NCBI GenBank assembly: GCA_026416755.1
Contig: JAOAEP010000095.1
Coordinates: 1-34,786 of the forward strand
Source of the DNA: a bacterium
GTDB lineage: Bacteria; Ratteibacteria; UBA8468; B48-G9; JAFGKM01
Length of the DNA stretch: 34,786 nt
Direction: 5' to 3'
Below are positions 4,280 to 20,478 of this stretch, piece after piece (position 1 is the first letter of the stretch; each line of letters opens with the position of its first letter). A model generated the notes under the pieces. That model saw only the letters and a list, made by a program, of their open reading frames with translations, did not search any database and was not told the origin of the DNA. Made by a program: the position numbers and the translations under genes.

Positions 4280-4302
4280 GGCTTCTCCTTTCTTTTTATA
4301 AT

Positions 4303-5058
4303 TTATCTTAACCTTCCCCACGGCATTCTATAATACCAGTCCTGGTTGGGGTCATATGCTTTATTGTAAGTCCATGCTTCAACATGTCCATCAGCAAATG
4401 CAAATATACAAATCGAAGTTTTAAGATTATCTGTATTTCCATGTCTTAAATTAAACGATTGGCCTGGAGTAGTACCTAAACAAAAAGTATTGTTCCAAGG
4501 AGCAGCACAACCACCATAACCTGTACTTGTAGCTGCAGCATCTCCAAAAATAATCTGTTCAGAAGGTCTTTTTATTTCACTATATTTTTTGTAAGGCATA
4601 ACAGACCCATAATTTCTTCCTCCAACAATACAAACAGGCATTCCATAATGAGCCTCAAGTTGATAGACTAATCTTCCTCTTGCATTTCTATTTGAAGGGC
4701 ATTTCAAAATGCCATTTCTATATTTTGGTGGAATTGTAGCCCAATAGCCACCAGTTAATTCTGGCATGTTAAGATATGTTCTCATAATAAATGGCCACCA
4801 ATATGTTATAGATGGTTCTTGTTCATAAACCATTCCTGAAAATCTATACGCAGCATTATGAACAGCTGGTAAAATCTCATCATAATCTTCAATATACATT
4901 TTCCAAGCAAGAGCAAGTTGTTTTAAGTTATTCATACATAAAGACATTCTTGCTCTTTCTCTTGCTTTACTTAATGCTGGTAATAGCATGGCTGCCAAAA
5001 TAGCAATTATGGCAACCACTACAAGAAGTTCAATTAATGTAAATCCTTTCCTTTTCAT
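4303..5058 (-). CDS. Prepilin-type N-terminal cleavage/methylation domain protein (type II secretion/type IV pilin-like pseudopilin, DUF1559-like with C-terminal H..DG motif)
   Basis: [29 protein letters not shown] is a canonical class III (prepilin) signal. C-terminal RHGN...[11 protein letters not shown] resembles the H-X9-DG motif but with a longer spacer. I prefer ATG 5058 (GGAGGTGAG upstream) over the track start at 5106. Confidence 0.85.
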
Positions 5059-5102
5059 AATCTCACCTCCTTTTTTATTTTTTTCTTCTTTTTTAATTTT
5101 TC

Positions 5103-6121
5103 TCATAATCTCACCTCCTTTACACTTTCTCTTTCTATTATTTCAACATCAAATATTATCTTTTCAATTTTTTTATCAGGATTTTTTATTCTCTCTATCA
5201 ATAATTCAACTGCTTTTTTGCCCATCTCTTCAAGTGGTTGCTCTATTGATGTTAAAGTTGGATTTGAATATAAGCAATTTATTATATTATCAAAACCTAT
5301 TATACTTAATTCATCAGGAACTTTTATTCCAATTTTTGCACTTTCTCCTATTAAACTTAATGCATAAATATCTCCAAATGTAATCACTGCTGTCGGCCTT
5401 TCTTTCATACTGAACCAATTTTTTAATGTCTGTCTTGCATATTCATTTATCTCTTCTGTCCCACCGATTTTCCTCTCAGGCAAATTTATATATTCTTCTT
5501 TTATTTCAAGTCCAAAAATCTTAAGCCCTTCAATATATCCTTCTAACCTTTCTTTTTGATGTATTCCAAGTGGCTTCATCCCAAATAATGATATCTTTCT
5601 ATGACCTTTATTATAAAGATAACCTATTGCTTTTATTATCCCACCTTTATTATCAGGCATAACATAATCACAACTTACTTTCTCAGACCTATAATTTAAA
5701 AAAACAATAGGAATTTTCTCTTTCAATTTTTAAATAACATCATCTGGTATTTTTTCTTCTATTATAAGTCCATCAACTTTTTTTAATATATCAGGCCTAT
5801 ATAATATTTCTTGATAATTCTCTAATGCGTAAAGTAAAAGATTTAAATTTTTATTTTTTATAACCTCAAATACACCTGAATAAAATCTGTGATAATAAGG
5901 GTCTGATATAGAAACACTTGAAGGAAAGATATATCCAATATTTCCTGTCTTAAACCCATCTTCAACTGGTATATAAAATTTTCTATATCCAAATTCTTCT
6001 GCTGTCTCTATAATCTTCCTTCTTGTCTCTGGAGATATCTTTACTTCTTTATTATTTAAAACAAAACTAACTGTCGTCTGTGATACCCCCTCTTTGCAAT
6101 TTCTTTTTGGTTTACTTTCAT
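5103..6121 (-). pseudogene. LacI-family transcriptional regulator, disrupted by an N-terminal frameshift and an in-frame TAA
   Basis: ATG 6121 gives MKVNQKEIAK, then the frame is lost in a G5 run (plus-strand CCCCC, 6086-6090). The -1 frame continues GVSQTTVSFVLNNKEVKISPETRRKIIETAEEFGY (LacI HTH) and stays open to TAA at 5730-5732. The 207-aa track ORF (TTG 5726) continues in the same frame with the sugar-binding domain (IPIVFLNY...SIIGFDNI...LTSIEQP). Confidence 0.8.
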
Positions 6122-6144
6122 ATAAATTTTAATTTTGTCAAGAA

Positions 6145-6169: not shown

Positions 6170-8497
6170 TTATTTTTGTTTCTCTAAATAAAAAAATATT
6201 AGTTCATTTGGGTTGATTTTATATGTGACTAAATTATTCTTTGATTGAATTTTCTCAATTTTTTCTTCTATTGGGTTTGAAAGATAAAATTCTATATCTT
6301 CTTCAATTTTAAATTTTAAACTGAACTTAGTATTTTTATTATCAGTTTCTTTTAAACATAAAATATAACCATTATTATCATTGGATTTTTTAAAGTATAA
6401 GATAAAGATGTTATTTTTATCTATTTCAAAAACTCTCTCAACAATCTCTTTAAAATTTTTCTTTATATATTTATCTGAAATATCATATCCAAAATGATTT
6501 TCAATTTCTCCTTTTTTAGAAGTAAATAAATATCTAAATTGAATCATACCTGATTGGAAACATTTAAAATTTGTATACCAATAATTATTAATTACATAAG
6601 AAAAAACCCACCCCTTTTTTATATCTAATTTTTTTAACCATTTACCTGTATTTATGTCTGAAAGTTGTATAAGTGGACTATCTGGACTTATAAATAATAT
6701 ACTTTTTGAAATATCACTTAAAATAATCCAGTCCTCAGTGGAATAATAATCTTTTGCGGTATTTAGTAACTGTTCCTTCTCTGGGATAAAAATACTTTTA
6801 CCTGGACCTGATATCTTAATTTTTGGACAAATTAAGTTAAAGGGAAATGCGAAATATACACCTTCTGGATTTATATTTTCTTCCTTAAATAAGGTATTTT
6901 TTATCTTAATTATTTTTTCTTTATTACATAATTCAATTTCTGATAAAATGTTTTTACATCCTTTCCCTTTTAATTTTAATATAATCTTTTCTGCTTCTTT
7001 GTTTTTGCATTTTTCTGCAAACTTTAGTTTTGAAAAATATCTTTTAAATTTTGCATCTCTTCTTTTTCTACTTTCACTCCATAAAGGTTCTTTAGAATAT
7101 TCATCCCATATTGAATTTCTTCCTTCTTTAAATACAATTTCTTCAAATATGTATCTATTAAATAAATAGGGAGAATCTTTATCAACCATTTCCTCTTTTA
7201 ATTCTTTATCAATTATTGAACTTATAGCACCATTTTCTTCATTTATCTCAATTCTATAAAAATCATTTTCAATTTTAAAATCATTATTAATTTTTGAAAA
7301 ATTCCTTATATTATATTTTTCAAATTCAAGATTTATTTTTTTAAAAATCTCTGTCCCTTTCTTATATAATCTTTCATTTTCAATGTAGGCATTATAGATA
7401 AAATTTGACTTTATTTGCCACTGCAAAATTGAATTAACAGAAAATGGATTTTTTATACTTTCACTTGCACCAAAAGTATGTTCTGCGAAAAAAAATAGGT
7501 TTTCCCAAATTTCATATATTTTTTTTGATGGATATTTGTGTAAACTAAGAATCTCAAGATAAGCATAAATTAGTTCGTTTTCTAAAACTTTTCTGACACT
7601 TTCTAAATATTTAGATACTTCAAAAGCACATGAAGCATTTCCATCTGCCCACCAATCAGGCCATGCTTTTTTATGTATCTCAAATTTATCAAAATATTTT
7701 TTTTCCATATATTTAAAAAATTTTTTAGGTGTTGAAAAAATTATAAAAGGTTGTTTTTCTTTTCCGTTCCATTCTTTTATAATTTTGGATATTTCAATTG
7801 ATGGCGGTTGATTATCCATGGCGACTTGTATACATATTGCATCAAAAGGATAATTATTATAAAAATTTTCAATAAATTCATTTAAGTTTTTTTTAACTTT
7901 TTCGTATGATTCTAAAAAACCAATATTTATCCCTTCTGCATACCAAAAATTCCTACTTGCATTCCAAACAAGAACTCTACTATCATCAGGAGAAATCCAC
8001 CAGAAAGGAACTAAAACAGATGGTGCAAAAGCCCTTATTTCATTTGTTGCCATCAAAAGGTATCTTATTCCAATTTTATTTAAAATTTGAGGTAGATTCC
8101 ATGGAAGCCCATTAATATCACAATTCATTGCAGTAGTTATCTTTATACCGTATTTCTCCTTTAGTTCTTTTATAAAATATAAACTTCTTATTAAGGTTTC
8201 AATGGTATAAAGTTCTGTCATATTTAAATAAAGTCCAGTTATTTCAATTCTTCCTTCTTTTACTCTTTTAATAAATTCTTCTATTTTTCGTTGTCTATTT
8301 TCAAAATAATGTTTAACCTGCCATAATGTTTCACAAGTCCATCTAAATTTTGCTTCTTCAGGATAATCTTCTGTCTTCTTACAATAGAAAAGAACATCAT
8401 CAAAAAATTTAATATAATCATCAAAAAGTTTTGTTTGAATATCTGTATATCCAATGTCTGTGTGTGTATGATGGATTAAAAAAATTTTATTTATCAT
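6170..8497 (-). CDS. Glycoside hydrolase family 38-like (alpha-mannosidase-type), cytoplasmic
   Basis: 775 aa with no signal peptide. N-terminal IHHTHTDIGYTD resembles the GH38 metal-binding HxHxD motif. NCDINGLPWNLPQILNKIGIRYL resembles the GH38 DxFG..lPqil..Gi block. Confidence 0.6.
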   Translation of the reverse strand: MINKIFLIHHTHTDIGYTDIQTKLFDDYIKFFDDVLFYCKKTEDYPEEAKFRWTCETLWQVKHYFENRQRKIEEFIKRVKEGRIEITGLYLNMTELYTIETLIRSLYFIKELKEKYGIKITTAMNCDINGLPWNLPQILNKIGIRYLLMATNEIRAFAPSVLVPFWWISPDDSRVLVWNASRNFWYAEGINIGFLESYEKVKKNLNEFIENFYNNYPFDAICIQVAMDNQPPSIEISKIIKEWNGKEKQPFIIFSTPKKFFKYMEKKYFDKFEIHKKAWPDWWADGNASCAFEVSKYLESVRKVLENELIYAYLEILSLHKYPSKKIYEIWENLFFFAEHTFGASESIKNPFSVNSILQWQIKSNFIYNAYIENERLYKKGTEIFKKINLEFEKYNIRNFSKINNDFKIENDFYRIEINEENGAISSIIDKELKEEMVDKDSPYLFNRYIFEEIVFKEGRNSIWDEYSKEPLWSESRKRRDAKFKRYFSKLKFAEKCKNKEAEKIILKLKGKGCKNILSEIELCNKEKIIKIKNTLFKEENINPEGVYFAFPFNLICPKIKISGPGKSIFIPEKEQLLNTAKDYYSTEDWIILSDISKSILFISPDSPLIQLSDINTGKWLKKLDIKKGWVFSYVINNYWYTNFKCFQSGMIQFRYLFTSKKGEIENHFGYDISDKYIKKNFKEIVERVFEIDKNNIFILYFKKSNDNNGYILCLKETDNKNTKFSLKFKIEEDIEFYLSNPIEEKIEKIQSKNNLVTYKINPNELIFFYLEKQK

Positions 8498-9591
8498 TTA
8501 TTGCCTCCAGAATTGAAATCCAGGACAATTTACAAATTTCCAACCAATATCAAGTTTTTTTATTACTTTCCCAATTAGACTTATAGATAAGGTTCTGAAC
8601 CATGTAGCAAACATAGAACTTTCATTTATTTTTGAATACATTTCTTTATGTCCATATTCAAATTCTTTATCTTTAAAAAACAAAATCCACCATCTTCATT
8701 CTGATGAAATAAAATATTTGAAATTGTTTTATTAAGTGCTTTTTTTACATCTTCCCTTCTATAATCAATTTTGAAATATAATCTTACAAGTGGGTCTATA
8801 CAATCAATATCCTGAAAAGCAGAACTTATTGGATGATGAGGACCTAAAAAACCACCTTTTTCGTTCGGAAGAGACAAGATTCTATCAATAATTATTTCTT
8901 TGTAATTAAAATCTATATTGTCATAGAAAAAAAGTAAAAATTCGTGATAACCACCCATAATAACTTCTGATAAACTAATTTTATTATTTAAATCTATATT
9001 AGGTCCCCATGTACCGTGTTGTTTATTTTGATTTTTCAGTAACCATTCCAACATAATCTCTACTGAGTTTTTTGCTTTTTGCTTATTATGAAAATCTCTT
9101 GAATATTGAAGTAAAGAACCAATATTTAAAATCTCATTTCCTGAGTTGTTTGAACCCTCAGGTGTTTTAAAATTTCTTTCATTTAGCCATTTAACTAAAA
9201 AATCTGGATTATAAAATTTTCTTAAAAACTTAAATTCTTTTTTTACAACTTCTGATAAACAAGTTAGAGCAACTATTACATGACATGTTAAATGCCGCCA
9301 TCCCCACCAATCAAAATTTATATATTTACTATCTGAAACAACAGGGTCTTTAAATAAACCGTCATCATCCTGAAAAGAATTTAAATAATTTGCCCATAAT
9401 TTTATCTTTTCTTTTTCAAATTTTTTTAATTCATTAAATAAATCCAATGTCATAACAGCATAACATGAAGAATAAAAAGTTGGTCTTGAACTTCTCTTAC
9501 CATAAAAGTATTCATAAAATTTTTCCCCTTTCATGCTTTCAATAAATGACAAAATTCTTTTCTTAATTTCCAGAATATCAAATTTCTTCAT
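8498..9591 (-). CDS. Alpha/alpha-toroid repeat protein (prenyltransferase/squalene-oxidase-repeat-like), reading frame interrupted by a -1 shift at 8674-8680
   Basis: Track ORFs 8626..9645 (339 aa) and 8498..8683 (61 aa) are consecutive pieces. Repeats of the QxxDGGF type: FQDDDGLF, NEKGGFLG, HQNEDGGF. The -1 frame stays open for 59 codons and stops 1 nt before the GH38 start codon. Start is probably ATG 9591, because the TTG at 9645 lies deep inside the GH2 gene. Confidence 0.5.
8674..8680 (-). other. T TTT TTA (U UUU UUA) heptamer exactly at the junction of the two frames of the toroid-repeat gene. It is either a candidate -1 frameshift site or the site of a 1-nt T deletion.
   Basis: Minus-strand reading GGA TTT TGT TTT TTA AAG. 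A -1 slip on T_TTT_TTA gives TTT TTT AAA GAT, which is the 61-aa ORF frame. Codon phases were checked against both track ORFs. Confidence 0.3.
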
Positions 9592-11287
9592 ATATTTTTT
9601 TAAGTGTTTCAAAAACTGATTTTTTACTTCTATTAAATGACACAACTCCTTTATGATTTATTTCATCTGCCCAAAATCTAACAATTGACTTACTTGGGTC
9701 AGGATAATCATTAAAAGAAAATGGAAAATAGCCTATAATCTGTTGGAATTTTTTGAAAATTTTAAAACTTTCTTCCAATAAAGCAGAATGATAATCTTCA
9801 GAACCTAAAACAAAACCAGAAAAACGGAAGCCTGGTAAACTATCAGCACCAAATTCAGTAATTGCAACTGGTATTTTATGTCTATTGAAAAATTCTCTAA
9901 GTTTTATTTCAAGAATTGTTAAATCTAACTTTTCTTCTTTCCAGTTTTCATAATTTTTACCAAGTTTATCATACCAGCCAAAATATTCATTAAGTCCAAT
10001 TATATCAAGTTTTTTAAAGAATCCTTCTTCCTCTTTTCTCATCAAAATAAGAGATGCATAACTTATAAACCTATTCCTTTCAAGTTTTCTTGCAAATTCA
10101 ATTAATCTATCAAAGAAATCTTTTGCTCCAGGCAAAAAAGTACTATTTTCATTTCCAATTGACCATGTAATTATTGAGGGATGGTGAGAATAATAATTAA
10201 ATGTTTCTTGAAAATATTGTTCTGCTAATTTATAATTTTCTTCCTTTACAAAAAAATCATCTGGTATTCCTGCATACTTTTCAAGACAATATATAGGAAT
10301 ATCACACCATACCATAAGCCCTTCTTTATCACATAAACTAAAAAATTCTTCAGATAAGGGAAAATGGACTCTTATAGTGTTTACTCCAAGTTCTTTAATT
10401 AATTTTATATCCTCTTCTATCATCTCTTTTGTAAAAACAAGGCCACCAATAGGATTTATTGGTAAATAATTTATTCCCTTTAACTTTATCTCTTTACCAT
10501 TTAAAAAAATTTTATAATCAACAATTTTAAGTTCCCTTACACCAAATTCTTTCTCAATTTTATCAAGTAAATCTCCATTTTTATCAATTATCTTAAATAA
10601 AAATTTATAAACTTTGGGAAAATCAGGAGACCATTTTTTTAAATTATGCAGAGGGAATTTTAACTCTCCTGAAAAATCATCTATTTTATCCTTTTTTTCA
10701 TAAATAACAGTTTCCCCATCCAAAATATTTAAATAATAATACAATTCATTCCTATTTTTACCTTTAATTTCGTAATTAATTATCCCTTCTTCATTTTCAA
10801 AATTTAAAATTAACTTGTCAATTCTAATTTTTCTTGAAATTTTTATATACACAGGTCTATGTATTCCACCATAGTTAAACCAACCAACAACATATGGCAT
10901 TCTCAAAAGATGTCTTCTATTATCAACTTTTACTACAAGAACATTTTTTCCTTCTCTTATTTTTTCGGTAATGTCAAAAGAAAAAGGAGTATATCCACCT
11001 TCATGATAACCAATCTTTTCTCCATTTAAATAAACTTCACAAATATAATTGACACCTTCAAAACAAATTTCTGAAATAAAATCTTTTTTAAAATTATCAA
11101 TATAAAATTCCTTTGCAAACCATACCACTCCTTCATAAAGATAATATTTTTCTCGATATAAATTCCAAACAGAAGGAATATATATCGTTTCCCAATAATC
11201 TCTTGGGAAATCGGGATTAAAATACGGAGTTACAATTACTCCCATATCAATAGTAAATTTCCATACTCCATTTAAATTTAGAATCAT
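9578..11287 (-). CDS. Glycoside hydrolase family 2 (beta-galactosidase/beta-glucuronidase-like), cytoplasmic
   Basis: 569 aa. Motifs: LNGVWKF, NGEKIGYHEGGYTPFSFDIT, GIHRPVYI, WSIGNENS (acid/base NE), ITEFGADS (nucleophile E). GGGAGG RBS. No signal peptide. Confidence 0.85.
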   Translation of the reverse strand: MILNLNGVWKFTIDMGVIVTPYFNPDFPRDYWETIYIPSVWNLYREKYYLYEGVVWFAKEFYIDNFKKDFISEICFEGVNYICEVYLNGEKIGYHEGGYTPFSFDITEKIREGKNVLVVKVDNRRHLLRMPYVVGWFNYGGIHRPVYIKISRKIRIDKLILNFENEEGIINYEIKGKNRNELYYYLNILDGETVIYEKKDKIDDFSGELKFPLHNLKKWSPDFPKVYKFLFKIIDKNGDLLDKIEKEFGVRELKIVDYKIFLNGKEIKLKGINYLPINPIGGLVFTKEMIEEDIKLIKELGVNTIRVHFPLSEEFFSLCDKEGLMVWCDIPIYCLEKYAGIPDDFFVKEENYKLAEQYFQETFNYYSHHPSIITWSIGNENSTFLPGAKDFFDRLIEFARKLERNRFISYASLILMRKEEEGFFKKLDIIGLNEYFGWYDKLGKNYENWKEEKLDLTILEIKLREFFNRHKIPVAITEFGADSLPGFRFSGFVLGSEDYHSALLEESFKIFKKFQQIIGYFPFSFNDYPDPSKSIVRFWADEINHKGVVSFNRSKKSVFETLKKIYEEI

Positions 11288-11394
11288 TTATACCTCCCTA
11301 TTTCTTTTTTTATTTATCGGTACTTAAAATTTCTGAAGATATATTCCAAAAAGTGTAATTTTATCACCAAAAAGTCCCTTATATTCTCTTAAAT

Positions 11395-11730
11395 CTATAT
11401 GTTAAAATCAACTACTTTTTCCATAATTTCAACAACTAAATCTTTTTCTTCAATAAATAGTGGTAACCCATTTTCAAAACCAAAAGTCCTTTCAAGAATA
11501 AACCATGCTGGTTCTTCAATAGTTAAAGCAATAAAATCACCTTTTGTTCTTCCTTCTAAATAAGTTCTTATTAAATCTTCTCTTAAATACTCAATAGGGT
11601 CTATATCTTCAGGAATTCCTTCTTTTTTCCATCTTTCAATAGTTTTAGGCCAGAAAGAAATCTTACAAATTGGAACTCTATCAGGAATTTTTCCCTCTAA
11701 AACCATTCTTATTCTTTCTGATGAACTCAT
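11395..11730 (-). pseudogene. Truncated URO-D-like (uroporphyrinogen decarboxylase/MtaA superfamily) gene fragment, N-terminal ~110 codons only
   Basis: MSSSERIRMVLEGKIPDRVP matches the N-termini of the two full-length paralogues (MNSRERILSALENKDVDRVP; SKRERVERTLIFEDVDRV). The ORF stops after 111 aa and is followed by 107 nt of non-coding sequence before the GH2 gene. Confidence 0.6.
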
Positions 11731-11751
11731 TCTTTTTCTCCTTTTTATTTC

Positions 11752-12963
11752 TTAGCAATATTTTTTATAAATTTCTATCATTTTTTTAACATTTTCATAA
11801 GGTGTATCAGGAAAGAGAGAATCAACAGGAGATAAAATAACTCCTTTTTTTCCATAAATCTCAATTACATCCTTAATTTGTTTTTCTATTTCTTTTTCAT
11901 TACCATTTTTTAAAGTGAGAGTACTATTTATTCCACCCGCAATACAAAATTTATTTTTTACTTTTTCCTTCATTTCATTTAAATCAATTTTATCAAACAC
12001 AGGGTCAAAAAAATAAAGAAGGTCAATACCAACATTAGCAAAATCACCAATAAAATTCATAATTCCTGTTGTCATTATATATGCAAATTTTTTACCTGCT
12101 TGATGAACTAAATCAACTGATTTTTTCAAAATTGGTAAAACATATTTTTTAAATAAAGAAGGAGACCAAAAATCAGTTGAACTATACCATCCCCTTTGAA
12201 CTATTATATCTACTTCTCCTTCTTCAATTGCTATTTCTGTTCTCATTAAATCAAATTTAAAAATTAAATCTATAACTTCTTTGAAAAATTCTCCCTCTGT
12301 CATTGCTTTAAAAATCGCGTTTTCAATACCCATTAAATATATAACTCCATCCATTCCTAATAAAGTATGTCCTTGAACACAAACAGGTATTTCTGATTTA
12401 AATTTTTTTATTAATTTTATTTTTTCTCTGTAATCTTCTAATTGCTGTTTTGTAGGCGGTCGTAATAAATATTCAATTTTTTCTAAATCACTTTCTTCAG
12501 AAATAGGAAATTTTTCGCTCCTTGGCAAATTTAAGTCATCTATAAGAACACAGTTATCTCTTTGTATAGGCCAACCATTAGGAATTATTTCTTCCTTTTT
12601 TTTCACCTTTTGATAAATTGAACCTTTAGGGGTTTTATATTCTCTTATCATTAAATTTTTCTCTTTATAATCCTTTATTTCAACTTCTTTACTTATACTC
12701 CATGGTACAGAAATATCAATAATATCATCAATTCCAATAGATAACCATCTTTTAACCCTTTCAAACTCATCAAATATTGTCCATTCTTGAGGTAATCTAT
12801 GTATATGTTCAAGTCGCATTGTATACCAGTATTTTACTTCTTTACCATTTCTATTCCATCTTAATGATTTATCAGGAGAAAACCCAAAACACCAGCAATA
12901 CAAAGGAACTCTATCAACATCCTTATTTTCTAAAGCAGATAATATTCTTTCTCTTGAATTCAT
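11752..12963 (-). CDS. URO-D-like (uroporphyrinogen decarboxylase superfamily) protein of unknown function
   Basis: 403 aa. N-terminal RERILSALENKDVDRVPLY is typical of the URO-D/MtaA-like TIM-barrel family. It lies 2 nt from the upstream gene. Confidence 0.6.
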   Translation of the reverse strand: MNSRERILSALENKDVDRVPLYCWCFGFSPDKSLRWNRNGKEVKYWYTMRLEHIHRLPQEWTIFDEFERVKRWLSIGIDDIIDISVPWSISKEVEIKDYKEKNLMIREYKTPKGSIYQKVKKKEEIIPNGWPIQRDNCVLIDDLNLPRSEKFPISEESDLEKIEYLLRPPTKQQLEDYREKIKLIKKFKSEIPVCVQGHTLLGMDGVIYLMGIENAIFKAMTEGEFFKEVIDLIFKFDLMRTEIAIEEGEVDIIVQRGWYSSTDFWSPSLFKKYVLPILKKSVDLVHQAGKKFAYIMTTGIMNFIGDFANVGIDLLYFFDPVFDKIDLNEMKEKVKNKFCIAGGINSTLTLKNGNEKEIEKQIKDVIEIYGKKGVILSPVDSLFPDTPYENVKKMIEIYKKYC

Positions 12964-12965
12964 TT

Positions 12966-14270
12966 TTATCCCTTTCTTACATACTTAACCTTTATATTTT
13001 TAAATAATTCTTCTATTTCATCGCCAACATGTCCATATCCTATCATCCAGTGATGTCCAAAACCATATTCTTCAATAATTTTCAAAAATTCCTCAATTTT
13101 AAGTGGTAACATAATCTTAACAGGGTTGCCTGGAAAAACCATATCTGTCTTTATTGCTTTACCTTGAATAATAAAACTTCTGAAATTGTCCCTTCCTCCA
13201 ACTAAATTGATAAGTGTAACATCTCCTTCTTTTGATGGGAATTGACAACAAACTCCCTTATTTGCAAGACGAACTGATGAAAGTATTATTTTTCCTTTTT
13301 CTTCTGCAAGTGAAAAACTACTGCTTCCACAATGAGAAAATATTGCCCAATTTTCATTAAAATTTATGTCAAGTAAATCAGTATTATTAACAGGATTTCC
13401 TGTAAATTTATAGAGTATAAATGTAGCAATTAGAGAATTTACATCTCCTTCACAGGAAGAAACTATTCCTTCTTCTGATAATAAAGAAAAAGCAAGACAA
13501 ATATCACCCATTAGTTCTGGATAACATTCAACGGTTATTCCATCTATATCTTCTTCTTTTACCCATCTTTTTAAAGCAATGTAAAACTTTATTGAATCAA
13601 TTAATGCCTTTTCTTGAACTTCTATCTTCTCAACACTCTTTTTTAAAAACTGAATTATATCTAAAATCTCTTTTTTTCTTACTTTTTCTTTCATTAATTT
13701 TAAACTATCAATATCTAAAAAAATCATTCTTGGACCAAAAATTCTCTTAATTCCAATCTCATCATAAGCAATCTCAGTCATACCTTTTATTCTATGACCA
13801 ATTAGACCAAACTTTGATTTTGATAATCTATTTTTTAAAGCAATTATTTTTGAATAAGATATTATTTCCTTATACACATCTTCATCTTCAATATCTCCAA
13901 AAACAAATTTATAGGGTATGTCTATTTCTTTTAAAACAGAACATATCTGTTGACCTCCGCAAAGAGAACCATAATGGATTCCAGGGATAGCCCATATAAT
14001 AACAGGTAATTTAATTTCACTTAAAAGGTCAAGAATTAAAGTATCATCACTCCATGTAGCAAGTAAAACACAGAAAAGGTCAATTTCTTTGTCTTTAAAA
14101 AATTCTATTCCTTTTTTAAGTGTTTCTCTATTATCAATAACTCTGTCAAGGATAACAACATTTACCTTTTCAGATAATCTATACCCAGCAATTTTTAAAA
14201 GTGCTTCTCCTCTTTCAGCCCCAACCTCAAATTTACTTCTTATAACAAAAAACCCAATTTTACCTGACAT
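12966..14270 (-). CDS. L-fucose/L-arabinose isomerase-family sugar isomerase
   Basis: 434 aa. N-terminal KIGFFVI...DLFCVLLATWSDD...PVIIWAIPG and C-terminal GFGHHWMIGYGHVGDEIEEL resemble FucI-related (COG2407-type) proteins. AAAGG RBS. Confidence 0.55.
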   Translation of the reverse strand: MSGKIGFFVIRSKFEVGAERGEALLKIAGYRLSEKVNVVILDRVIDNRETLKKGIEFFKDKEIDLFCVLLATWSDDTLILDLLSEIKLPVIIWAIPGIHYGSLCGGQQICSVLKEIDIPYKFVFGDIEDEDVYKEIISYSKIIALKNRLSKSKFGLIGHRIKGMTEIAYDEIGIKRIFGPRMIFLDIDSLKLMKEKVRKKEILDIIQFLKKSVEKIEVQEKALIDSIKFYIALKRWVKEEDIDGITVECYPELMGDICLAFSLLSEEGIVSSCEGDVNSLIATFILYKFTGNPVNNTDLLDINFNENWAIFSHCGSSSFSLAEEKGKIILSSVRLANKGVCCQFPSKEGDVTLINLVGGRDNFRSFIIQGKAIKTDMVFPGNPVKIMLPLKIEEFLKIIEEYGFGHHWMIGYGHVGDEIEELFKNIKVKYVRKG

Positions 14271-14358
14271 AATTACCTTTCATTTAAAAACTTTTCATTT
14301 TTTATACTTTTTACCGTCTCAATCATTTTAATAAAGTTTTTAAATTTTATCATTGTAT

Positions 14359-15279
14359 TTACCTTGATGTTCCTATGAAAAGTCCTCCTTTATTTAAAGC
14401 ATTTGTTTCATATATTTGTCTTTTTACTTCTTTTTCTACATCATAAATACTCCCTCTTTCCATTAAATTAACACCATCAACACCACCAGCCCAGATAATA
14501 TTGGGATATTTGTTTTTTAATTCAACTATATCCATTCCACAAGATAATTCAAGACAGTAAAATCCATCCACTCCTATTTTTATAAAATCATCAATTAAAA
14601 TTTTATAATTTCCATCACTGTGATAGATTACTTTAATTCCATAAGCATGCCATACATCAATCTGTTTTTTAAGATATGGGAAAAAATATCTTTTATAAAA
14701 TTCAGGAGAAAAAATAGGCCCTGTTTTTGATGCAATATCATCTGGAATTAAAATAACAGGGAATAATTTTAAAACTCCAATTAAATCTGCCTTTTTTACT
14801 TCATATTCGGTCCTAAATTCAAAATATTCTTCAATAATTTCTGGCTCATCATATATTAAATAAGTAAGTGGTTCTATTAATCCATGATTCCATAGTTCGC
14901 ATAAACCAACACTTGTAGGATAATCACATATTACAGTATCATCTCCTATTAGTTTTTTGATATTTAAAATCTTTTCTTTATCTATATCTGGCGATTTTAT
15001 TACCCAGGTGCTCCAATAATCATCCTGGTATATTGTTCCATATTCTTCTACCCATCTTTTTCTTCCTTTTGGAGGAAATGAAGGAAATGTCATATCAAGT
15101 GTTTTCCTTATAACTTCACATATATCATTTAAAGAATAATTAAAACCATTTATTTTTCTACCAGTGTAAAAAGAGATAACCTCTGGATTATAACTTACTT
15201 GATCATGAATTGCCACTCTATCCACATCTTCAAAAATTAATGTTCTTTCAACTCTTTCTCTTTTTGATAATTCTTTCAT
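14359..15279 (-). CDS. URO-D-like (uroporphyrinogen decarboxylase superfamily) protein of unknown function
   Basis: 306 aa. Motifs: KRERVERTLIFEDVDRVAIHD and IKVIYHSDGNYKILIDDFIKIGVDGFYCLE, the latter in the position of the HxCGN block of MtaA-like enzymes. 4-nt overlap with the GH42-like gene. Confidence 0.6.
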   Translation of the reverse strand: MKELSKRERVERTLIFEDVDRVAIHDQVSYNPEVISFYTGRKINGFNYSLNDICEVIRKTLDMTFPSFPPKGRKRWVEEYGTIYQDDYWSTWVIKSPDIDKEKILNIKKLIGDDTVICDYPTSVGLCELWNHGLIEPLTYLIYDEPEIIEEYFEFRTEYEVKKADLIGVLKLFPVILIPDDIASKTGPIFSPEFYKRYFFPYLKKQIDVWHAYGIKVIYHSDGNYKILIDDFIKIGVDGFYCLELSCGMDIVELKNKYPNIIWAGGVDGVNLMERGSIYDVEKEVKRQIYETNALNKGGLFIGTSR

Positions 15280-17411
15280 ATTTTTTTCAATATTTTTACT
15301 GAAAGTGGCTCAATAAGTAATTCTTTTTTATATTGTTTTTCAAATATATCAATATATTTATCGCCAATTTTCAAACTTACTTTTTCATTTGTTGGATTTA
15401 TCAAAAACAAAATTTCATCTTTTTTATAAATCTTTTTTCTATATAAAACTTTACCAATTTTATTTTTTCTTAAATTTAAACTATCTAAAAGTTTTTCAAG
15501 GAATTTTTCTGTATCTTTATCTTCATAAGTTAAAATTGAATGCCCTAATAAAGTTCCTATAAGAAAAACTTTTCCTTCTCCATATTTTTTTACCACTCCA
15601 CAGGTATCTCTTTTATAAATTAAAATCTCTTCTCCATCAAAACACTTAAATGTTTGAATATATAAATTTGGTAAAACTCTATATTTATAAAATTGACCCT
15701 CTCCTTCAAGATATTCACAATTCACATATTCAATCCATGTCGGTTCTTCAGCAGTCCATAAATTTATACCTTTTTCCCTAACCATAAATAAATTTTTATG
15801 CTCTACACCCCAAAATTTAGGATCTATAATCTTTTCTTTCCTTGCAAATCCATACTTTGTATATCTTCCAGGACATGCCTCTGAAATCAAAACTCCACCT
15901 TCTTCAACATATTTCTTCAACTTTTCAAATGTTTTATCATCAATGGAAATGGGAAATGGCAGAAAAACTATTTTGTATTTATTAATATTTTCAATATATT
16001 CTTTATTTAAAAAATCAACCCAAATCCCATTTTTCCATAAAAATTTATAAATACCTCTTATTGTATATATTAAATGTTGAGTTGCTTTACCTTCTTTTAT
16101 AGGTATACATTCAAGAAAATTAAACTTATCTTCATCTATTAATATTGCAAATTCATTATCTTCCATTTTACCTTCTGAAAAAATTTCTCCATACTTATTG
16201 ATTATCTTTGATATCTTACCTGACTCTTTTGCTCTTTCTGTTAATTTCCCATCAAAATCAATAAGGCCAAATCCATATGCTTCCTGCCAAAAAATTTCTT
16301 CTTTGTGATTCCAAAAACATAATCCATTTATTCCAGTTGATAATGCAGTTAATACCCATCTTCTTATATCTTCTTTATTTGGAACTCTTCCTCTATTTAA
16401 AAAAGAAACAATTGGTCCTCCTTGAAATTCTGCAGCCCAATATTTTTTACCCATACATGCACTTCTTATATAATCAAACTTAAAAGAAATATTATTCCAC
16501 ATTTGAAATAATTTAATTTCATTTTCAGAATAGTCATTTTTATCCCATCTATCTTTTACACTCCAATCTGGATATACTGAACAACCGTAAAAATCAATAC
16601 TTTCCGCAAATTTCCAATCTTGTCCACTACCTATATATGGAAAAGCAACATGAGCAAAAATTGGTCTATTATGTTCATCATTTTCTTTTATAACTTTATA
16701 TTTGAATTTTAAAACTTCTGCCAAATAAACATTGTTCATATAATATTTAAAATCTATAATAGAGGGAACGGATGAATAATATCTTGGGGGTTCTATTTCA
16801 TTCCAATTTCCAAAACCTGTTTTCCAAGTTTCATTTAATTTTTCCAAAGAACCATATTTTTCTTCTAACCATTTCCTAAATTTATCAAGTGTATATTGAC
16901 AATAACAAAAGCCAATTTTACCAGGATACATAGGCCAAAAACCTATTTCTTGCCATATATTCCATGCAATTATATTTTTATATTTTGATATTTTTTTTAT
17001 AACCTCTCTCAAAAACCTTTCTGCTTCTTTTCTTATACCCGGATTATTCCAACAAGGACCTGGTTTTCCATCCGCTGGCAAAAGATATTGAGTTGGGTCT
17101 TTATGTATTGTCCCATCATTATAAATAAGATATGCATCAGGATACTTTTTCCATAACCAAGCAGGTGCTTGTTCTAATGTGAAACCGAAATAAACGTATA
17201 GATTTAATCTTTCAGTATCTTTAATTATTTTTTCAATTCTTGAAATATCAATTTCGCCTTCATTTTTTTCATCAATTGCCCAGGACTGTTGAATTTTAAC
17301 CATATTAAATCCAAGTTTTTTTAAAATCTTTAAATCATTTTTTATTTCTTCAATAGGTAAAGAAGGTTCTCTATAAATATGGCATCCATAAGGAAAAAAT
17401 TTTTTATTCAT
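15276..17411 (-). CDS. GH42-like beta-galactosidase (TIM barrel plus trimerisation-like domain), cytoplasmic
   Basis: 711 aa with no signal peptide. Motifs: LKKLGFNMVKIQQSWA, NIIAWNIWQEIGF, YWAAEFQGGP. C-terminal half contains VEEGGVLISEACPG, like the GH42 amidotransferase-like domain. Confidence 0.55.
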   Translation of the reverse strand: MNKKFFPYGCHIYREPSLPIEEIKNDLKILKKLGFNMVKIQQSWAIDEKNEGEIDISRIEKIIKDTERLNLYVYFGFTLEQAPAWLWKKYPDAYLIYNDGTIHKDPTQYLLPADGKPGPCWNNPGIRKEAERFLREVIKKISKYKNIIAWNIWQEIGFWPMYPGKIGFCYCQYTLDKFRKWLEEKYGSLEKLNETWKTGFGNWNEIEPPRYYSSVPSIIDFKYYMNNVYLAEVLKFKYKVIKENDEHNRPIFAHVAFPYIGSGQDWKFAESIDFYGCSVYPDWSVKDRWDKNDYSENEIKLFQMWNNISFKFDYIRSACMGKKYWAAEFQGGPIVSFLNRGRVPNKEDIRRWVLTALSTGINGLCFWNHKEEIFWQEAYGFGLIDFDGKLTERAKESGKISKIINKYGEIFSEGKMEDNEFAILIDEDKFNFLECIPIKEGKATQHLIYTIRGIYKFLWKNGIWVDFLNKEYIENINKYKIVFLPFPISIDDKTFEKLKKYVEEGGVLISEACPGRYTKYGFARKEKIIDPKFWGVEHKNLFMVREKGINLWTAEEPTWIEYVNCEYLEGEGQFYKYRVLPNLYIQTFKCFDGEEILIYKRDTCGVVKKYGEGKVFLIGTLLGHSILTYEDKDTEKFLEKLLDSLNLRKNKIGKVLYRKKIYKKDEILFLINPTNEKVSLKIGDKYIDIFEKQYKKELLIEPLSVKILKKI

Positions 17412-18582
17412 TTTTTAAATCCTTTAATACCTTTTTAAACATCTTTATTTTCTCTTTTATTTCTTTTTCCTTCCAATCAGGATTAACTGGAACAATAACT
17501 GTCTTACTTAAATTCTCTATTGACTTTGGATACATTTCTTTTGTAAATGTATGCCTTAAATCTTTATTTTCTGGGAAATTATATGGGTTTAATACATCTT
17601 TATGCCATATCCTTTTTTCTATAATTGGTTTCCAGTCAAACCAGACATGTTTTTTTGAATCAATTGGTCTATATCCACCTGCGTTTAAAGCAAATTTTTT
17701 AGCAATATTCTCGTCTTCAAATCTAAAGGGTATCATAACTCCACAATCTCCATTTATATCATTTGAAGGAGCAAATTTAAAACCCTTAATTTCTCTAAGT
17801 TCTTCCATAATTCTTCTTTTATTTTTCCTTAAATCCTTTAAAATTTTATCCAGTCGTTTTAACTGCACCCTCATTATTGCTCCCATTATTTCATCTGCTC
17901 TAAATTGTAATCCTAAAAATATAGGTATTGAAAATTCACTAGCATAAGGTCTAAAAGCAGTTCCACTATCATGAAAAATACTTGCTTTCTCATATAAAAT
18001 CCTATCATTTGTTACTAAACAACCACCTTCTCCACAACTTATTATTTTAAACCAGTTGAAACTATAAGCACCTGCATCTCCAATACTACCAAGCCGTTTA
18101 CCTTTATAACTTCCTCCAACTGCTTGGCACGCATCCTCAAGGACTTTTAGGTTATATTTTTTTGCAATGTCCAAAATTTTATCCATATTACAAGGAAATC
18201 CAACCATATGAACAGGAATAACTGCTTTTGTATTTTTTGTAATTTTTTTCTCTAAATCTATAGGGTCAATAGTACATGTCTCATCTACCTCAACAACTAC
18301 TGGAATTGCTCCTACCATTAAAACACTTGTTGCTGTTGCCATAAAAGTATAGGAAGGAATTAAAACTTCATCACCTGGCCCTATATCAAGACCAACAAGT
18401 CCGCATATTAAAGCAGCAGTTCCACCTCCTGACATAAGTAAAGCATATTTTGTACCAATTTTTTTTGCCCATTCTTCCTCAAATTTATCACATTCTCCTT
18501 TCCTTTTTTTTACTCTAAAAAGTTCTTTGCTCTTTATTACTTTTTCAACTGCTTTTACTTCCTCTTTCCCTATTCTATACAT
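17404..18582 (-). CDS. DegT/DnrJ/EryC1/StrS-family PLP-dependent sugar aminotransferase
   Basis: 392 aa. Motifs: ALLMSGGGTAALICGL, GDEVLIPSYTFMATA, AYSFNWFKIISCGEGGCLVTND (PLP-Lys block). GGAGG RBS. 8-nt overlaps with both neighbouring genes. Confidence 0.85.
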   Translation of the reverse strand: MYRIGKEEVKAVEKVIKSKELFRVKKRKGECDKFEEEWAKKIGTKYALLMSGGGTAALICGLVGLDIGPGDEVLIPSYTFMATATSVLMVGAIPVVVEVDETCTIDPIDLEKKITKNTKAVIPVHMVGFPCNMDKILDIAKKYNLKVLEDACQAVGGSYKGKRLGSIGDAGAYSFNWFKIISCGEGGCLVTNDRILYEKASIFHDSGTAFRPYASEFSIPIFLGLQFRADEIMGAIMRVQLKRLDKILKDLRKNKRRIMEELREIKGFKFAPSNDINGDCGVMIPFRFEDENIAKKFALNAGGYRPIDSKKHVWFDWKPIIEKRIWHKDVLNPYNFPENKDLRHTFTKEMYPKSIENLSKTVIVPVNPDWKEKEIKEKIKMFKKVLKDLKNE

Positions 18583-19564
18583 TGTTTACCTCCTTTGTTG
18601 TCTTTCTTATTATTAATTCTGGTTTAAATATTATTTTTTTTGGTTTTAAATCAGGATTTTTAATTTTTTCAACTATAAGAATTGCTGCTTGTTTACCAAT
18701 TTCATAGTTTGGCTGACTGACAGTTGTTAATGGTATATGAAAAATTGAAAGAAAATCAATATTATCATATCCAATTATTGAAATCTCTTCTGGAACTTTT
18801 ACACCATAATCATTTAAATTATTTATTACGTCTATCGCCATTATATCACTCCAACAGATTATTGCTGTAATTTTTTCTTTCATTACTTCTTTTATATTTT
18901 CTTTTAATCTCTGTTTGTCAAAATTATTCTCCATAATATATTTTTTTTCTATTCCGTATTCATTTAGTGTTTCTATATATCCTTTTTTTATTTGGTTATC
19001 TGAGTATATATTTCCACCAATTCCAAAATAAGCAATTTTTTTATGCCCAATTTTTATAAGATAATCAGTTGCAATTTTACCACCATAAAAATCATCATCT
19101 CCAACAAAATCAAAAGACCCTTCATCTATATTTTCACTCATTAAGACAAAAGGAATTTTTTTATTTGTCAAAATTTCTACTTCTTTTAAATTATTCATTA
19201 TCGGGGTCAAAATTATTCCATCTACTTTTCTACTTATCATCTCTTTTATATAATTTTGTTGATTTTGCTTCTCACTAAAACATATAATCAAAGCAAAACC
19301 ATAGTTAAATAGAGAGTCATTGATACCTTTAATTCTTTCAATTGTGGTTGGATTTCCAAGATAGGGTAATACAAGACCAATTGTATATGTTTTTTTCTCT
19401 ACAAGGCATTTTGCTATTGAATTTGGAATATAACCCATTTCTTCTGCAATCTTTTTTATCTTTTTTTTTGTTTTTTTTGAAATATCACTTTTATTATTGA
19501 GTGCCTTAGATACTGTTGCTTTTGAAACGCCTGCAATTTTTGCTATATCTTTTATCGTAACCAT
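18575..19564 (-). CDS. LacI-family transcriptional regulator (intact)
   Basis: 329 aa. HTH: VTIKDIAKIAGVSKATVSKALNN. Periplasmic-binding-like domain: VDGIILTP, ISIIGYDNIDF, LTTVSQP. Confidence 0.9.
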   Translation of the reverse strand: MVTIKDIAKIAGVSKATVSKALNNKSDISKKTKKKIKKIAEEMGYIPNSIAKCLVEKKTYTIGLVLPYLGNPTTIERIKGINDSLFNYGFALIICFSEKQNQQNYIKEMISRKVDGIILTPIMNNLKEVEILTNKKIPFVLMSENIDEGSFDFVGDDDFYGGKIATDYLIKIGHKKIAYFGIGGNIYSDNQIKKGYIETLNEYGIEKKYIMENNFDKQRLKENIKEVMKEKITAIICWSDIMAIDVINNLNDYGVKVPEEISIIGYDNIDFLSIFHIPLTTVSQPNYEIGKQAAILIVEKIKNPDLKPKKIIFKPELIIRKTTKEVNNV

Positions 19565-19584: not shown

Positions 19585-19613
19585 ATAATACTACATCATA
19601 AAATTTTTGTCAA
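19585..19613 (-). promoter_or_regulatory. Predicted sigma70-type promoter of the lacI-headed operon: TTGACA-17 nt-TATTAT
   Basis: On the minus strand the -35 TTGACA is at 19613-19608 and the -10 TATTAT at 19590-19585. The spacer is exactly 17 nt and the ATG is about 20 nt downstream. Confidence 0.5.
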
Positions 19614-19672: not shown

Positions 19673-20038
19673 TTAAAATTTCTGAAGAGTATAAATTGCT
19701 CTTAAAAATTGAAAAGGTAAAATAGGAAAAACAAGGTATGCATCAATTCCATACTCTATCATAAATTCTTCTACTGCTTTATCAAATTTAGATACAAGTA
19801 TAAGAAATTTACAATCTTCAAATTTTCTCTTTATCTCTTTTACTATTTTTTTTGTCTTTATATCCGGAGTTTCAATTTCTAATACTGCTATATCCACACA
19901 ATTTTCTTTTTCAATCCTGTTAATTAAATCTTTATCATTAAACAAAAATCCAAAACATTCATAACCATTTCCTTTTAAATATAGAGTAAATTTTTCCAGT
20001 AGAATTTTTTCTTTTGTAATAATTAATATTTTTCCCAT
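19673..20038 (-). CDS. Degenerate (pseudo-)receiver domain protein, CheY-like fold without the phospho-acceptor pocket
   Basis: 121 aa with the receiver pattern KILIITKEK...DIAVLEIETPD...FLILVSKF...AYLVFP. The DD pair is replaced by TK, the acceptor Asp by Glu, and the conserved Lys by Phe. Confidence 0.6.
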   Translation of the reverse strand: MGKILIITKEKILLEKFTLYLKGNGYECFGFLFNDKDLINRIEKENCVDIAVLEIETPDIKTKKIVKEIKRKFEDCKFLILVSKFDKAVEEFMIEYGIDAYLVFPILPFQFLRAIYTLQKF

Positions 20039-20136: not shown

Positions 20137-20478
20137 ATGAAAAAAGAATTATACATTAAAAAAATTGGGGAAAAAATCAGAGATATAAGAAAAGAAAAAG
20201 GATATACCCAAAGTGAACTTGCTTTTAGAATAGGAAGAAGTCCAAATTTTATTGGTCTTATTGAGAGAGGAAAAAAAATACCAAGTTTAGATACTTTAAT
20301 AAAAATAGCAGAAATACTTGAGGTAAATCCATCTGTTTTTTTTGTTAACTTTAATTATAAAGTGGGAAAAGAGGATATTCTTGTAAAAAAAATTAGTTCA
20401 ATTTTAAAGGAAGGTTCTCAGAAAGATAAAAAATTAATATATCAGATAGCAAAATCAATTGTAAAAGGAAAAAGATAG
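20137..20478 (+). CDS. XRE-family (Cro/C1-type) helix-turn-helix transcriptional regulator
   Basis: 113 aa. IRKEKGYTQSELAFRIGRSPNFIGLIERGKKIPSLDTLIKIAEIL. TATAAT at 20123-20128 lies only 8 nt before the ATG, and there is no SD. Confidence 0.85.
   Translation: MKKELYIKKIGEKIRDIRKEKGYTQSELAFRIGRSPNFIGLIERGKKIPSLDTLIKIAEILEVNPSVFFVNFNYKVGKEDILVKKISSILKEGSQKDKKLIYQIAKSIVKGKR

Follow-up and report, generated by a model that had tools for sequence, protein, structure and literature searches.

Corrinoid-dependent O-demethylases such as MtvABC of Moorella, Odm and Vdm of Acetobacterium and Desulfitobacterium and Mto of Methermicoccus act on aryl methyl ethers, and the genes of characterized substrate-specific methyltransferases (MT1) usually adjoin the gene for their corrinoid protein. 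Methylated sugars occur in cyanobacterial and algal exopolysaccharides, in plant hemicellulose and pectin and in bacterial surface glycans, and the only sugar demethylation route we know of is oxygen-dependent, a P450 acting on 6-O-methyl-galactose. Here we describe a cluster of genes for sugar enzymes and URO-D-superfamily proteins at positions 19564-6170 of a 34,786-nucleotide contig (GenBank JAOAEP010000095.1, assembly GCA_026416755.1), referred to in its whole length as the window. The contig (C13) belongs to a Ratteibacteria metagenome bin (G000) of 1.43 Mb in 178 contigs, 82% complete and with about 27% G+C. We read the cluster as a LacI-controlled, cytoplasmic accessory catabolic operon for glycan trimming, corrinoid demethylation, transamination and isomerization of a modified sugar, a reading to which we assign a probability of roughly 45%. 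Its parts belong to known families, and its composition matches no characterized pathway.

Like the O-demethylase systems, this genome holds a (candidate) URO-D-superfamily methyltransferase, a corrinoid protein, a methyl-tetrahydrofolate (methyl-THF) methyltransferase and an activator of the RACo/RamA type, along with many paralogous MT1 candidates and an acetyl-CoA pathway in the host. It differs from them in that the MT1 candidate of the window lies apart from the corrinoid protein gene, among glycosidases and sugar enzymes, and lacks metal ligands at the MtaA site. The best fold and sequence match of this candidate is to the methylcobamide:coenzyme M (CoM) methyltransferases MtaA/MtbA (4ay7), from which it is set apart by the missing zinc site, a host that is no methanogen and a context without CoM genes. 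MtaA-like proteins of the URO-D superfamily also occur outside methanogens in the multi-paralogue type 1 mlp clusters, which resemble our system in both respects and were tied to methyl-sulfur and methyl-selenide metabolism (Kountz and Balskus, PMC10418091); the words sugar, carbohydrate and glycos- do not appear in the text of that article. Searching the literature by full text, we came upon no article about URO-D-like genes in sugar loci.

The operon consists of ten co-directional genes joined by overlaps or short gaps, as seen in the open reading frame (ORF) listing and in Pfam and NCBIfam profile scans of the ORFs, in which scores were judged against family cut-offs. In the direction of transcription they encode a LacI-family repressor, a DegT-type aminotransferase, a GH42 glycosidase, a short URO-D-like protein, a FucI-like isomerase, a long URO-D-like protein (URO-D_L), a URO-D remnant, a GH2 glycosidase, an alpha/alpha-toroid protein and a GH38-like glycosidase; these genes, like the promoter-like site, the second LacI-family gene and the 121-aa gene described below, lie on the minus strand. 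A preliminary description, made from the sequence alone, had gene content, order and strand right; it had counted eleven genes instead of ten and gaps of at most 107 nt. The largest gap as called is 128 nt, from the toroid stop to the GH38 start, and it vanishes when a frameshift in the toroid gene is read through. The view taken there of a catabolic, cytoplasmic locus without a characterized pathway has held up: neither profile nor full-text literature searches name such a pathway, a crude N-terminal check found a hydrophobic leader in none of the ten proteins, and profile scans of the ten ORFs found no ABC, MFS, PTS, TonB, kinase or aldolase domain. Transport genes are present elsewhere in the genome (three ABC permease pairs and about five MFS genes), two of them adjoining DegT paralogues.

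To compare the operon with other genomes we used the isomerase as anchor, scanning one genome per species. This gave 204 confirmed isomerase loci, of which the best 80 were analyzed with 10-kb flanks. They come from Planctomycetota, Acidobacteriota, Chloroflexota, Bacillota, Atribacterota, Armatimonadota, Verrucomicrobiota, Poribacteria, Latescibacterota, Aerophobetes, Bathyarchaeia, Brockarchaeota and Asgard archaea, more than 12 phyla overall. The adjacency of DegT, isomerase and URO-D-like genes, the lack of which the preliminary description had named as fatal to its proposal, proved to be strongly conserved across these phyla. A URO-D_L orthologue is found near the isomerase, nearly always adjacent to it, in 41 of the 80 loci by clustering (39 by score), with scores mostly of 330-480 bits and of 779 bits in locus L009, the nearest relative of the block. 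A DegT belonging to the same clade as that of the window is found near the isomerase in 37 loci, often together with GH38, Gfo/Idh/MocA and XylA-like genes; a GH38-like gene is found in 21, a Gfo/Idh/MocA oxidoreductase in 17, a non-pyrrolysine MttB-superfamily methyltransferase in 16, a XylA-like TIM barrel and a LacI regulator in 11 each, a ROK regulator in 6 and the toroid gene in 5. Eight other loci have a GH42 orthologue (566-666 bits) close to the isomerase; it is full-length in seven of them, and in the eighth, L009, a 3' fragment stands at the start of the locus. Genes for ABC importers (permeases and solute-binding proteins) and for GUS-like or other GH2 enzymes recur as well, while other loci have glutamate dehydrogenase, ceramidase-like amidases, GH129 or a sulfamidase-like sulfatase, and Acidobacteriota loci have a TonB-dependent receptor, a GntR regulator, an enolase-superfamily dehydratase, a short-chain dehydrogenase/reductase (SDR) and an EamA transporter. 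This last set of neighbors, together with a PotD-like amine importer in the MttB loci, speaks for the breakdown of an amino-substituted sugar or sugar acid.

The position next to the isomerase is filled in more than one way. MttB is mostly found directly upstream of the isomerase, in loci without a URO-D gene. Fifty-four loci extend over two or more genes in both directions from the isomerase; in 38 of them URO-D, MttB or the dioxygenase PhyH lies within two genes of it (25 URO-D, 7 MttB, 2 both and 4 PhyH), and in 16 none of these does. The sole known activity common to the URO-D superfamily and MttB is substrate:corrinoid methyl transfer. We favor corrinoid demethylation chiefly because these two families alternate in one slot and a dioxygenase takes their place in Poribacteria. 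The Poribacteria loci (L049, L050, L054 and L061) combine a GMC oxidoreductase, DegT, the isomerase, a PhyH-type 2-oxoglutarate (2OG) dioxygenase, a zinc-dependent alcohol dehydrogenase and ThuA, the PhyH gene coming after the isomerase, with neither URO-D nor MttB, in organisms that we take to be aerobic. Loci of the MttB variant (L023, L030, L052, L059 and others, from Atribacterota and Bacillota) carry a PotD/YdcS-like binding protein and a PotABC-like importer, and three have glutamate dehydrogenase; the variant suggests a small amine substrate rather than an oligosaccharide. The MttB beside the isomerase is non-pyrrolysine, as are the quaternary-amine methyltransferases MtgB, MtcB and MtpB, and scores 377 bits against the trimethylamine methyltransferase model. 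Unlike those enzymes, it has no adjacent corrinoid protein gene and is surrounded by genes for sugar enzymes. A published account of Brockarchaeota reads MttB as a trimethylamine methyltransferase. No MttB was found in the window or elsewhere in its genome.

The remaining components of a corrinoid demethylase are all present in the genome. It has a single stand-alone corrinoid protein (219 aa, MtgC/MtbC-like) encoded among housekeeping genes (C82:2980-3636), two full-length RACo activators (one of them at C60:3207-4841), and a methyl-THF:corrinoid methyltransferase scoring 261 bits against an NCBIfam cut-off of 259. An acetyl-CoA synthase (known in the genus as a 742-aa ORF) and formate-THF ligase are encoded too, and methylene-THF reductase (MTHFR), not found in this incomplete bin, is present in four genus relatives, so that these small-genome bacteria look like Wood-Ljungdahl organisms. 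The C1 genes lie at C108:2349-2813, C12:1072-2757 and C9:1570-2247 of this bin and in the genus relatives G048-G056. RACo is close to universal in the phylum, with 59 carriers among 65 genomes, against only one among 14 control genomes. All five distant genomes with URO-D_L that were inspected carry RACo and small corrinoid proteins; among five genomes that have the isomerase with no URO-D gene nearby, the only one free of RACo is also without a URO-D-like gene. Direct linkage was found in two Acidobacteriota that carry the isomerase/URO-D module. In one of them (L118, G001 C7:486000-504000) a methyl-THF methyltransferase gene, four URO-D-like genes, RACo, a corrinoid protein gene and two more URO-D-like genes form a single run, and in the other (L119, G004 C24:985000-1003000) the same run has three upstream URO-D-like copies.

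URO-D_L, the isomerase partner (403 aa, 11752-12963; URO-D 80.4 bits), has a predicted URO-D/MtaA fold. Its AlphaFold2 model (pLDDT 94) matches MtaA (4ay7) best and URO-D next, with an extra beta-rich insert of about 40-60 aa relative to MtaA. The short URO-D-like protein scores 34.6 bits with URO-D and about 32-35 bits with MtaA-type models, and has H-x-D at the MtaA metal positions (an H296-equivalent, S and D). These proteins are not assigned to either named enzyme class. A true HemE was rejected on a TIGR01464 score of 26.9 bits against a cut-off of 303 and on the presence of 17 paralogues, in sugar loci; a CoM methyltransferase (MtaA/MtbA/CmuA) was rejected on scores of 74 bits for URO-D_L and 35 for the short copy against a cut-off of 244, and on the replaced zinc site. 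Protein-atlas matches consisted only of clusters named 'URO-D domain protein'. All 17 URO-D matches fall within the 1.43 Mb of the bin, where the paralogues stand mostly among Gfo/Idh/MocA, DUF1559 pseudopilin, GH2 and ceramidase-like genes, and most of them retain H-x-C, H-x-D or D-x-D plus His at the MtaA metal site. Other families are large in this bin as well, with about 22 Gfo/Idh/MocA, about 19 DUF1559 pseudopilin-like and 8 DegT-like proteins.

The DegT/DnrJ/EryC1-family protein (392 aa, 17404-18582; PF01041, 253 bits) has the lysine of pyridoxal phosphate (PLP)-dependent enzymes in the motif ...NWFKIISCGEGG (also given as ...SFNWFKIISCGEGG) and is thereby a member of the aminotransferases; we take this lysine to be PLP-binding, of the aminotransferase type and not the His of a dehydratase. 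All NCBIfam equivalogs for DegT scored below their cut-offs. Its closest solved relative is KdnA (5k8b, 1.5e-66), an 8-amino-3,8-dideoxy-manno-octulosonate transaminase, and scyllo-inosose aminotransferases match at 1e-51; the substrates of these enzymes are free sugars or cyclitols, not nucleotide sugars. Unlike the setting of KdnA and the scyllo-inosose enzymes, the window is without genes of a Kdo or inositol pathway, and DegT stands in a catabolic operon. In a maximum-likelihood tree the DegT of the window falls inside a clade of isomerase-linked DegT proteins with 100/100 support, and four of six paralogues of the genome fall outside it. In genus relatives (L115, that is G052 C6:12000-30000, and L114, L116 and L117) a DegT orthologue, 86-89% identical, is the first gene of another operon, which also encodes two Amidohydro_2 proteins, a GDSL-like esterase and a metallo-beta-lactamase and adjoins 2-oxoacid:ferredoxin oxidoreductase genes.

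The isomerase-like protein (434 aa, 12966-14270) was placed by profiles and alignment in the FucI/AraA superfamily, and scores below the cut-offs of the family models: 193 bits with the sulfoquinovose isomerase SftI (cut-off 700), 30 with AraA (622) and 17.5 with Fucose_iso_C (29.3). Its 655 homologues are all unnamed or called 'fucose isomerase-like'. The invariant residues are E274 and D298, 24 apart, H313, H406/H407 and five Cys. The spacing of the acidic pair, together with the His, matches the FucI pattern, and in the alignment these residues fit a metal-dependent aldose-ketose isomerase. The protein thus shares the Glu/Asp spacing and His of FucI, AraA and SftI, and differs from them in its low scores and in the five Cys, which are not known from any of the three. 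These cysteines (C104, C249, C258, C273 and C314 in alignment A1), two of which adjoin the putative catalytic Glu and His, could form a metal or redox site.

Three glycosidases accompany the module. The GH42-family enzyme (711 aa, 15276-17411) has the catalytic TIM barrel (Glyco_hydro_42, 144.6 bits) and the trimerization domain (49.5 bits) of its family and is distant from solved beta-galactosidases (1e-26). The GH2 enzyme (569 aa, 9578-11287) is of the beta-glucuronidase/galacturonidase (GUS) type. Its best solved relatives are GUS and beta-galacturonidase enzymes (2e-59), and it scores 240 bits with the beta-glucuronidase model, below the cut-off of 544, so that any specificity given to it is tentative. 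Three GH2 domains and the motifs WSIGNENS (NE), ITEFGAD (TEFG) and N-H-K-G can be read in the translation, to which we assign the roles of acid/base, nucleophile and recognition of the uronate carboxylate on the model of Escherichia coli GUS. The last gene encodes a divergent, probable GH38-family enzyme (775 aa, 6170-8497; Glyco_hydro_38N, 94 bits) with HHTHTD, a candidate for the HxHxD metal motif, at residues 9-14, middle and C-terminal domains that match weakly, near or below cut-off, and no solved GH38 relative found by sequence. The galactoside/mannoside substrate guessed at in the preliminary description was incomplete, the GH2 being of the GUS type. The toroid protein is of a family of 639 clusters with the invariants H216, C259 and D263. 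Its AlphaFold2 model (pLDDT 95.7) predicts an alpha/alpha-toroid fold that is closest to prenyltransferase beta subunits, enzymes with an Asp/Cys/His zinc site (2zir_B, Z 22.1, root-mean-square deviation 3.7 A over 292 residues), glycosidase and epimerase toroids scoring lower (Z 15-18); the Pfam Prenyltrans score of 25.1 bits is under the cut-off of 26.5.

From these components we propose the following route. The three leaderless glycosidases would trim an oligosaccharide imported by a system encoded elsewhere and hand the freed unusual monosaccharide to the conserved three-part module. The URO-D/MtaA-fold enzyme would act as a substrate-specific MT1, passing the methyl group of the sugar to the single stand-alone corrinoid protein of the genome; RACo would keep that protein active, and the methyl-THF:corrinoid methyltransferase would unload the methyl group to tetrahydrofolate, from where it would enter Wood-Ljungdahl or C1 metabolism. 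The KdnA-like DegT would convert the amino group of the free sugar to a keto group, and the FucI-like metal-dependent isomerase would convert the aldose so formed to a ketose that feeds central metabolism. Removal or conversion of an amino/keto or O-methyl modification by the URO-D-like and DegT enzymes had been proposed in the preliminary description, and the idea fits the MttB and PhyH found in the slot, the corrinoid genes and the neighbors of the module; the chemistry itself, including the direction of the reactions, the need of URO-D_L for a corrinoid and the kind of sugar, we infer. The substrate may be an amino, deoxy or uronic sugar from a microbial or plant glycan, methylated at O or N. 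Among such sugars we have considered 4-O-methyl-glucuronate from arabinogalactan-type glycans (in view of the GUS-type GH2 and GH42), methylated 6-deoxyhexoses (in view of the FucI-like isomerase and of the dehydratase, SDR and EamA genes in Acidobacteriota loci) and N-methylated amino sugars (in view of MttB, the PotD-like importer and glutamate dehydrogenase).

Several observations weigh against a corrinoid demethylation operon, and they concern both the chemistry and the state of the genes. A gene for a corrinoid protein or RACo lies within 10 kb of the isomerase in none of the 80 loci, and linkage of MT1 candidates to corrinoid genes was seen only in L118 and L119, where the candidates are other URO-D-like paralogues. 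All zinc ligands of MtaA are missing from URO-D_L, which has I296, T298 and D381 at the positions of the His-x-Cys...Cys ligands, and no Cys is invariant in its orthogroup. Proteins of 707-2015 residues, a range above the roughly 600 aa expected for a fusion, included none in which URO-D_L is joined to a B12 domain. The acetyl-CoA pathway of this genus also needs RACo and the methyl-THF methyltransferase, and these proteins (or the methyltransferase and one of the two RACo) may have no other role.

Much of this would be expected if the URO-D-fold proteins, or URO-D_L at least, were corrinoid-independent TIM-barrel enzymes acting on the sugar as decarboxylases, lyases/eliminases, hydratases or epimerases. 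Their substrate would then be a uronic or keto sugar that the GUS-type GH2 sets free, and MttB and PhyH would carry out other steps in the loci that have them. The absent zinc ligands and the absence of corrinoid genes from all 80 loci agree with this alternative, as do an invariant Asp/Arg/Trp/Tyr/His set of the kind found in sugar-binding sites, the uronidase type of the GH2 and a founding member of the fold that is a cofactor-free decarboxylase; the acetyl-CoA pathway alone would account for RACo and the methyl-THF methyltransferase. We nevertheless consider this, the main alternative, unlikely, if deserving of serious attention. It does not account for the alternation of URO-D and MttB in one slot, given their only known common activity, or for the retention of a stand-alone corrinoid protein of the methyltransferase type, which the acetyl-CoA pathway does not need. 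The clusters of URO-D-like, RACo and corrinoid genes in two module-bearing genomes, and MtaA as the best match in fold and sequence, likewise speak for corrinoid methyl transfer.

As to the state of the genes, the operon is no intact unit of eleven: three of its genes are decayed, and the block is an accessory one attached to a DegT that the genus conserves. The reference for decay was L009, in a genome (G011) of the same order and another family, whose isomerase and URO-D_L are 70% and 82% identical to those of the window and whose genes stand in the order GH42, URO-D, LacI, isomerase, four URO-D-like genes, GH2, toroid and GH38. The toroid gene (8504-9645, called as 8626-9645) has a frameshift at a T-run at 8674-8680 and a likely true start at the ATG at 9591. 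Compared with the L009 orthologue (a 384-aa open frame, 361 aa from the ATG), 9654-8665 is in one frame and 8680-8504 in another, and the family-invariant Cys259 has become Phe. The short URO-D-like gene (14273-15279, called as 14359-15279 with 306 aa) is frame-broken at its 3' end near 14366, where residues 341-365 of its 366-aa L009 orthologue align in another frame at 14365-14291 that continues to 14273; about 27 internal residues are missing as well. The third is a remnant of a fourth URO-D-like gene (11316-11733). Its 111-aa ORF (11395-11730) had been called a URO-D-like fragment, and rightly so: it matches the URO-D paralogues and aligns in one frame to residues 4-59 and 137-193 of an intact 360-aa gene of L009, with about 77 aa lost internally and further pieces in two other frames down to 11316. 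One more URO-D gene of L009 is absent from the window altogether. The toroid and short URO-D copies of the window are probably inactive.

The block is patchily distributed. When the genomes of 65 species of the phylum were compared, only G000 and G011 had an isomerase orthologue (70% identity between the two proteins), and a third had only a distant isomerase homologue (29% identity, 2.6e-56). With ten other species of the genus the window shares DegT alone at the DNA level (79-84%), the rest of the block being absent. The block is an accessory element, because the isomerase occurs in so few genomes of the phylum and only DegT is common to the genus. As it is absent from the ten other species, the operon may no longer work as a unit, and whichever reactions its enzymes catalyze, this genome may be in the process of losing it. 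Taken further, this would make the block a decaying, non-functional remnant of an acquired island, with DegT and perhaps single enzymes still in use. Three operon lesions and a broken LacI gene downstream within about 14 kb, the lost invariant Cys of the toroid and the distribution just described are what this would predict. We regard it as improbable, in view of seven full-length frames (LacI, DegT, GH42, isomerase, URO-D_L, GH2 and GH38), tight or overlapping junctions, and an isomerase and URO-D_L that retain all family-invariant residues; single-base frame breaks in a metagenome bin, moreover, may be assembly errors. It also concerns the state of the operon and not its function, and is compatible with corrinoid demethylation of a modified sugar. 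That the locus is instead biosynthetic, with DegT and the isomerase making an amino sugar for a surface glycan that the URO-D-like proteins methylate, is very improbable and was rejected on gene context: the DegT family is mostly biosynthetic and corrinoid methyltransferases are reversible in principle, but the ten ORFs include three glycoside hydrolases and LacI and no glycosyltransferase, nucleotidyltransferase or flippase, and elsewhere the module keeps company with ROK, LacI and GntR regulators, ABC importers, a TonB receptor and glutamate dehydrogenase.

The first gene of the operon (18575-19564, 329 aa) encodes a LacI-family repressor with an N-terminal helix-turn-helix (HTH) domain (PF00356, 73.8 bits) and a periplasmic-binding-protein-like effector domain (PF13377, Peripla_BP_3, 100 bits; PF00532, Peripla_BP_1, 91 bits). 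Its best NCBIfam match is an RbsR-like model, under the equivalog cut-off. A promoter-like site, TTGACA-17 nt-TATTAT at 19585-19613, lies 21 nt upstream of the LacI start and agrees with the consensus at 11 of 12 positions; promoter-like and terminator counts in this AT-rich region do not exceed those of shuffled sequences, and the site is only suggestive. A search for LacI-type operator palindromes close to the promoter and in the gaps of the operon found none. Directly upstream is a 121-aa gene (19673-20038) with a weak receiver-domain match (27 bits, below cut-off), and beyond it a divergent HTH_3 regulator (20137-20478). Downstream, the second LacI-family gene (5103-6128), broken by a frameshift in a G-run of its HTH region near 6095 and by a TAA in frame at 5730-5732, stands between the operon and another operon at 519-5106 that encodes pseudopilin (N_methyl/DUF1559), unknown and CBM9 proteins. 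In a search of sequencing runs the stretch was found in two hot-spring DNA runs of different studies (0.95 and 0.68 of its words); no RNA run with it was listed in the same search.

New in this analysis are the triad of DegT, isomerase and URO-D, MttB or PhyH and its breadth across phyla, the corrinoid genes and acetyl-CoA pathway of the host, the URO-D/RACo/corrinoid clusters in module-bearing Acidobacteriota, and the accessory, decaying copy in the window. More broadly, we tentatively propose a widespread, so far undescribed pathway of uncultured glycan degraders, one that we hold to be possible though doubtful, for methylated amino, deoxy or uronic sugars freed from complex glycans. In it a URO-D-fold enzyme or non-pyrrolysine MttB would carry out corrinoid demethylation in anaerobes (replaced by a 2OG dioxygenase in aerobic Poribacteria), a free-sugar DegT deamination and a new FucI-like enzyme isomerization, the methyl group passing to THF and the Wood-Ljungdahl pathway. 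If this holds, sugar methyl groups would have their first route that needs no oxygen, and glycan degradation would be tied directly to C1 and acetyl-CoA metabolism. Many 'MtaA/MttB' genes now taken as evidence of methanol or methylamine methylotrophy would be reassigned, and a large, so far unnamed share of the genes annotated as 'uroporphyrinogen decarboxylase family' or 'trimethylamine methyltransferase' would have to be looked at anew, in Planctomycetota, Acidobacteriota, Chloroflexota, Atribacterota, Bathyarchaeia, Brockarchaeota and Asgard archaea. The DegT/isomerase/methyltransferase triad is a compact, testable enzyme set, and it bears on how anoxic communities may use methylated sugars.

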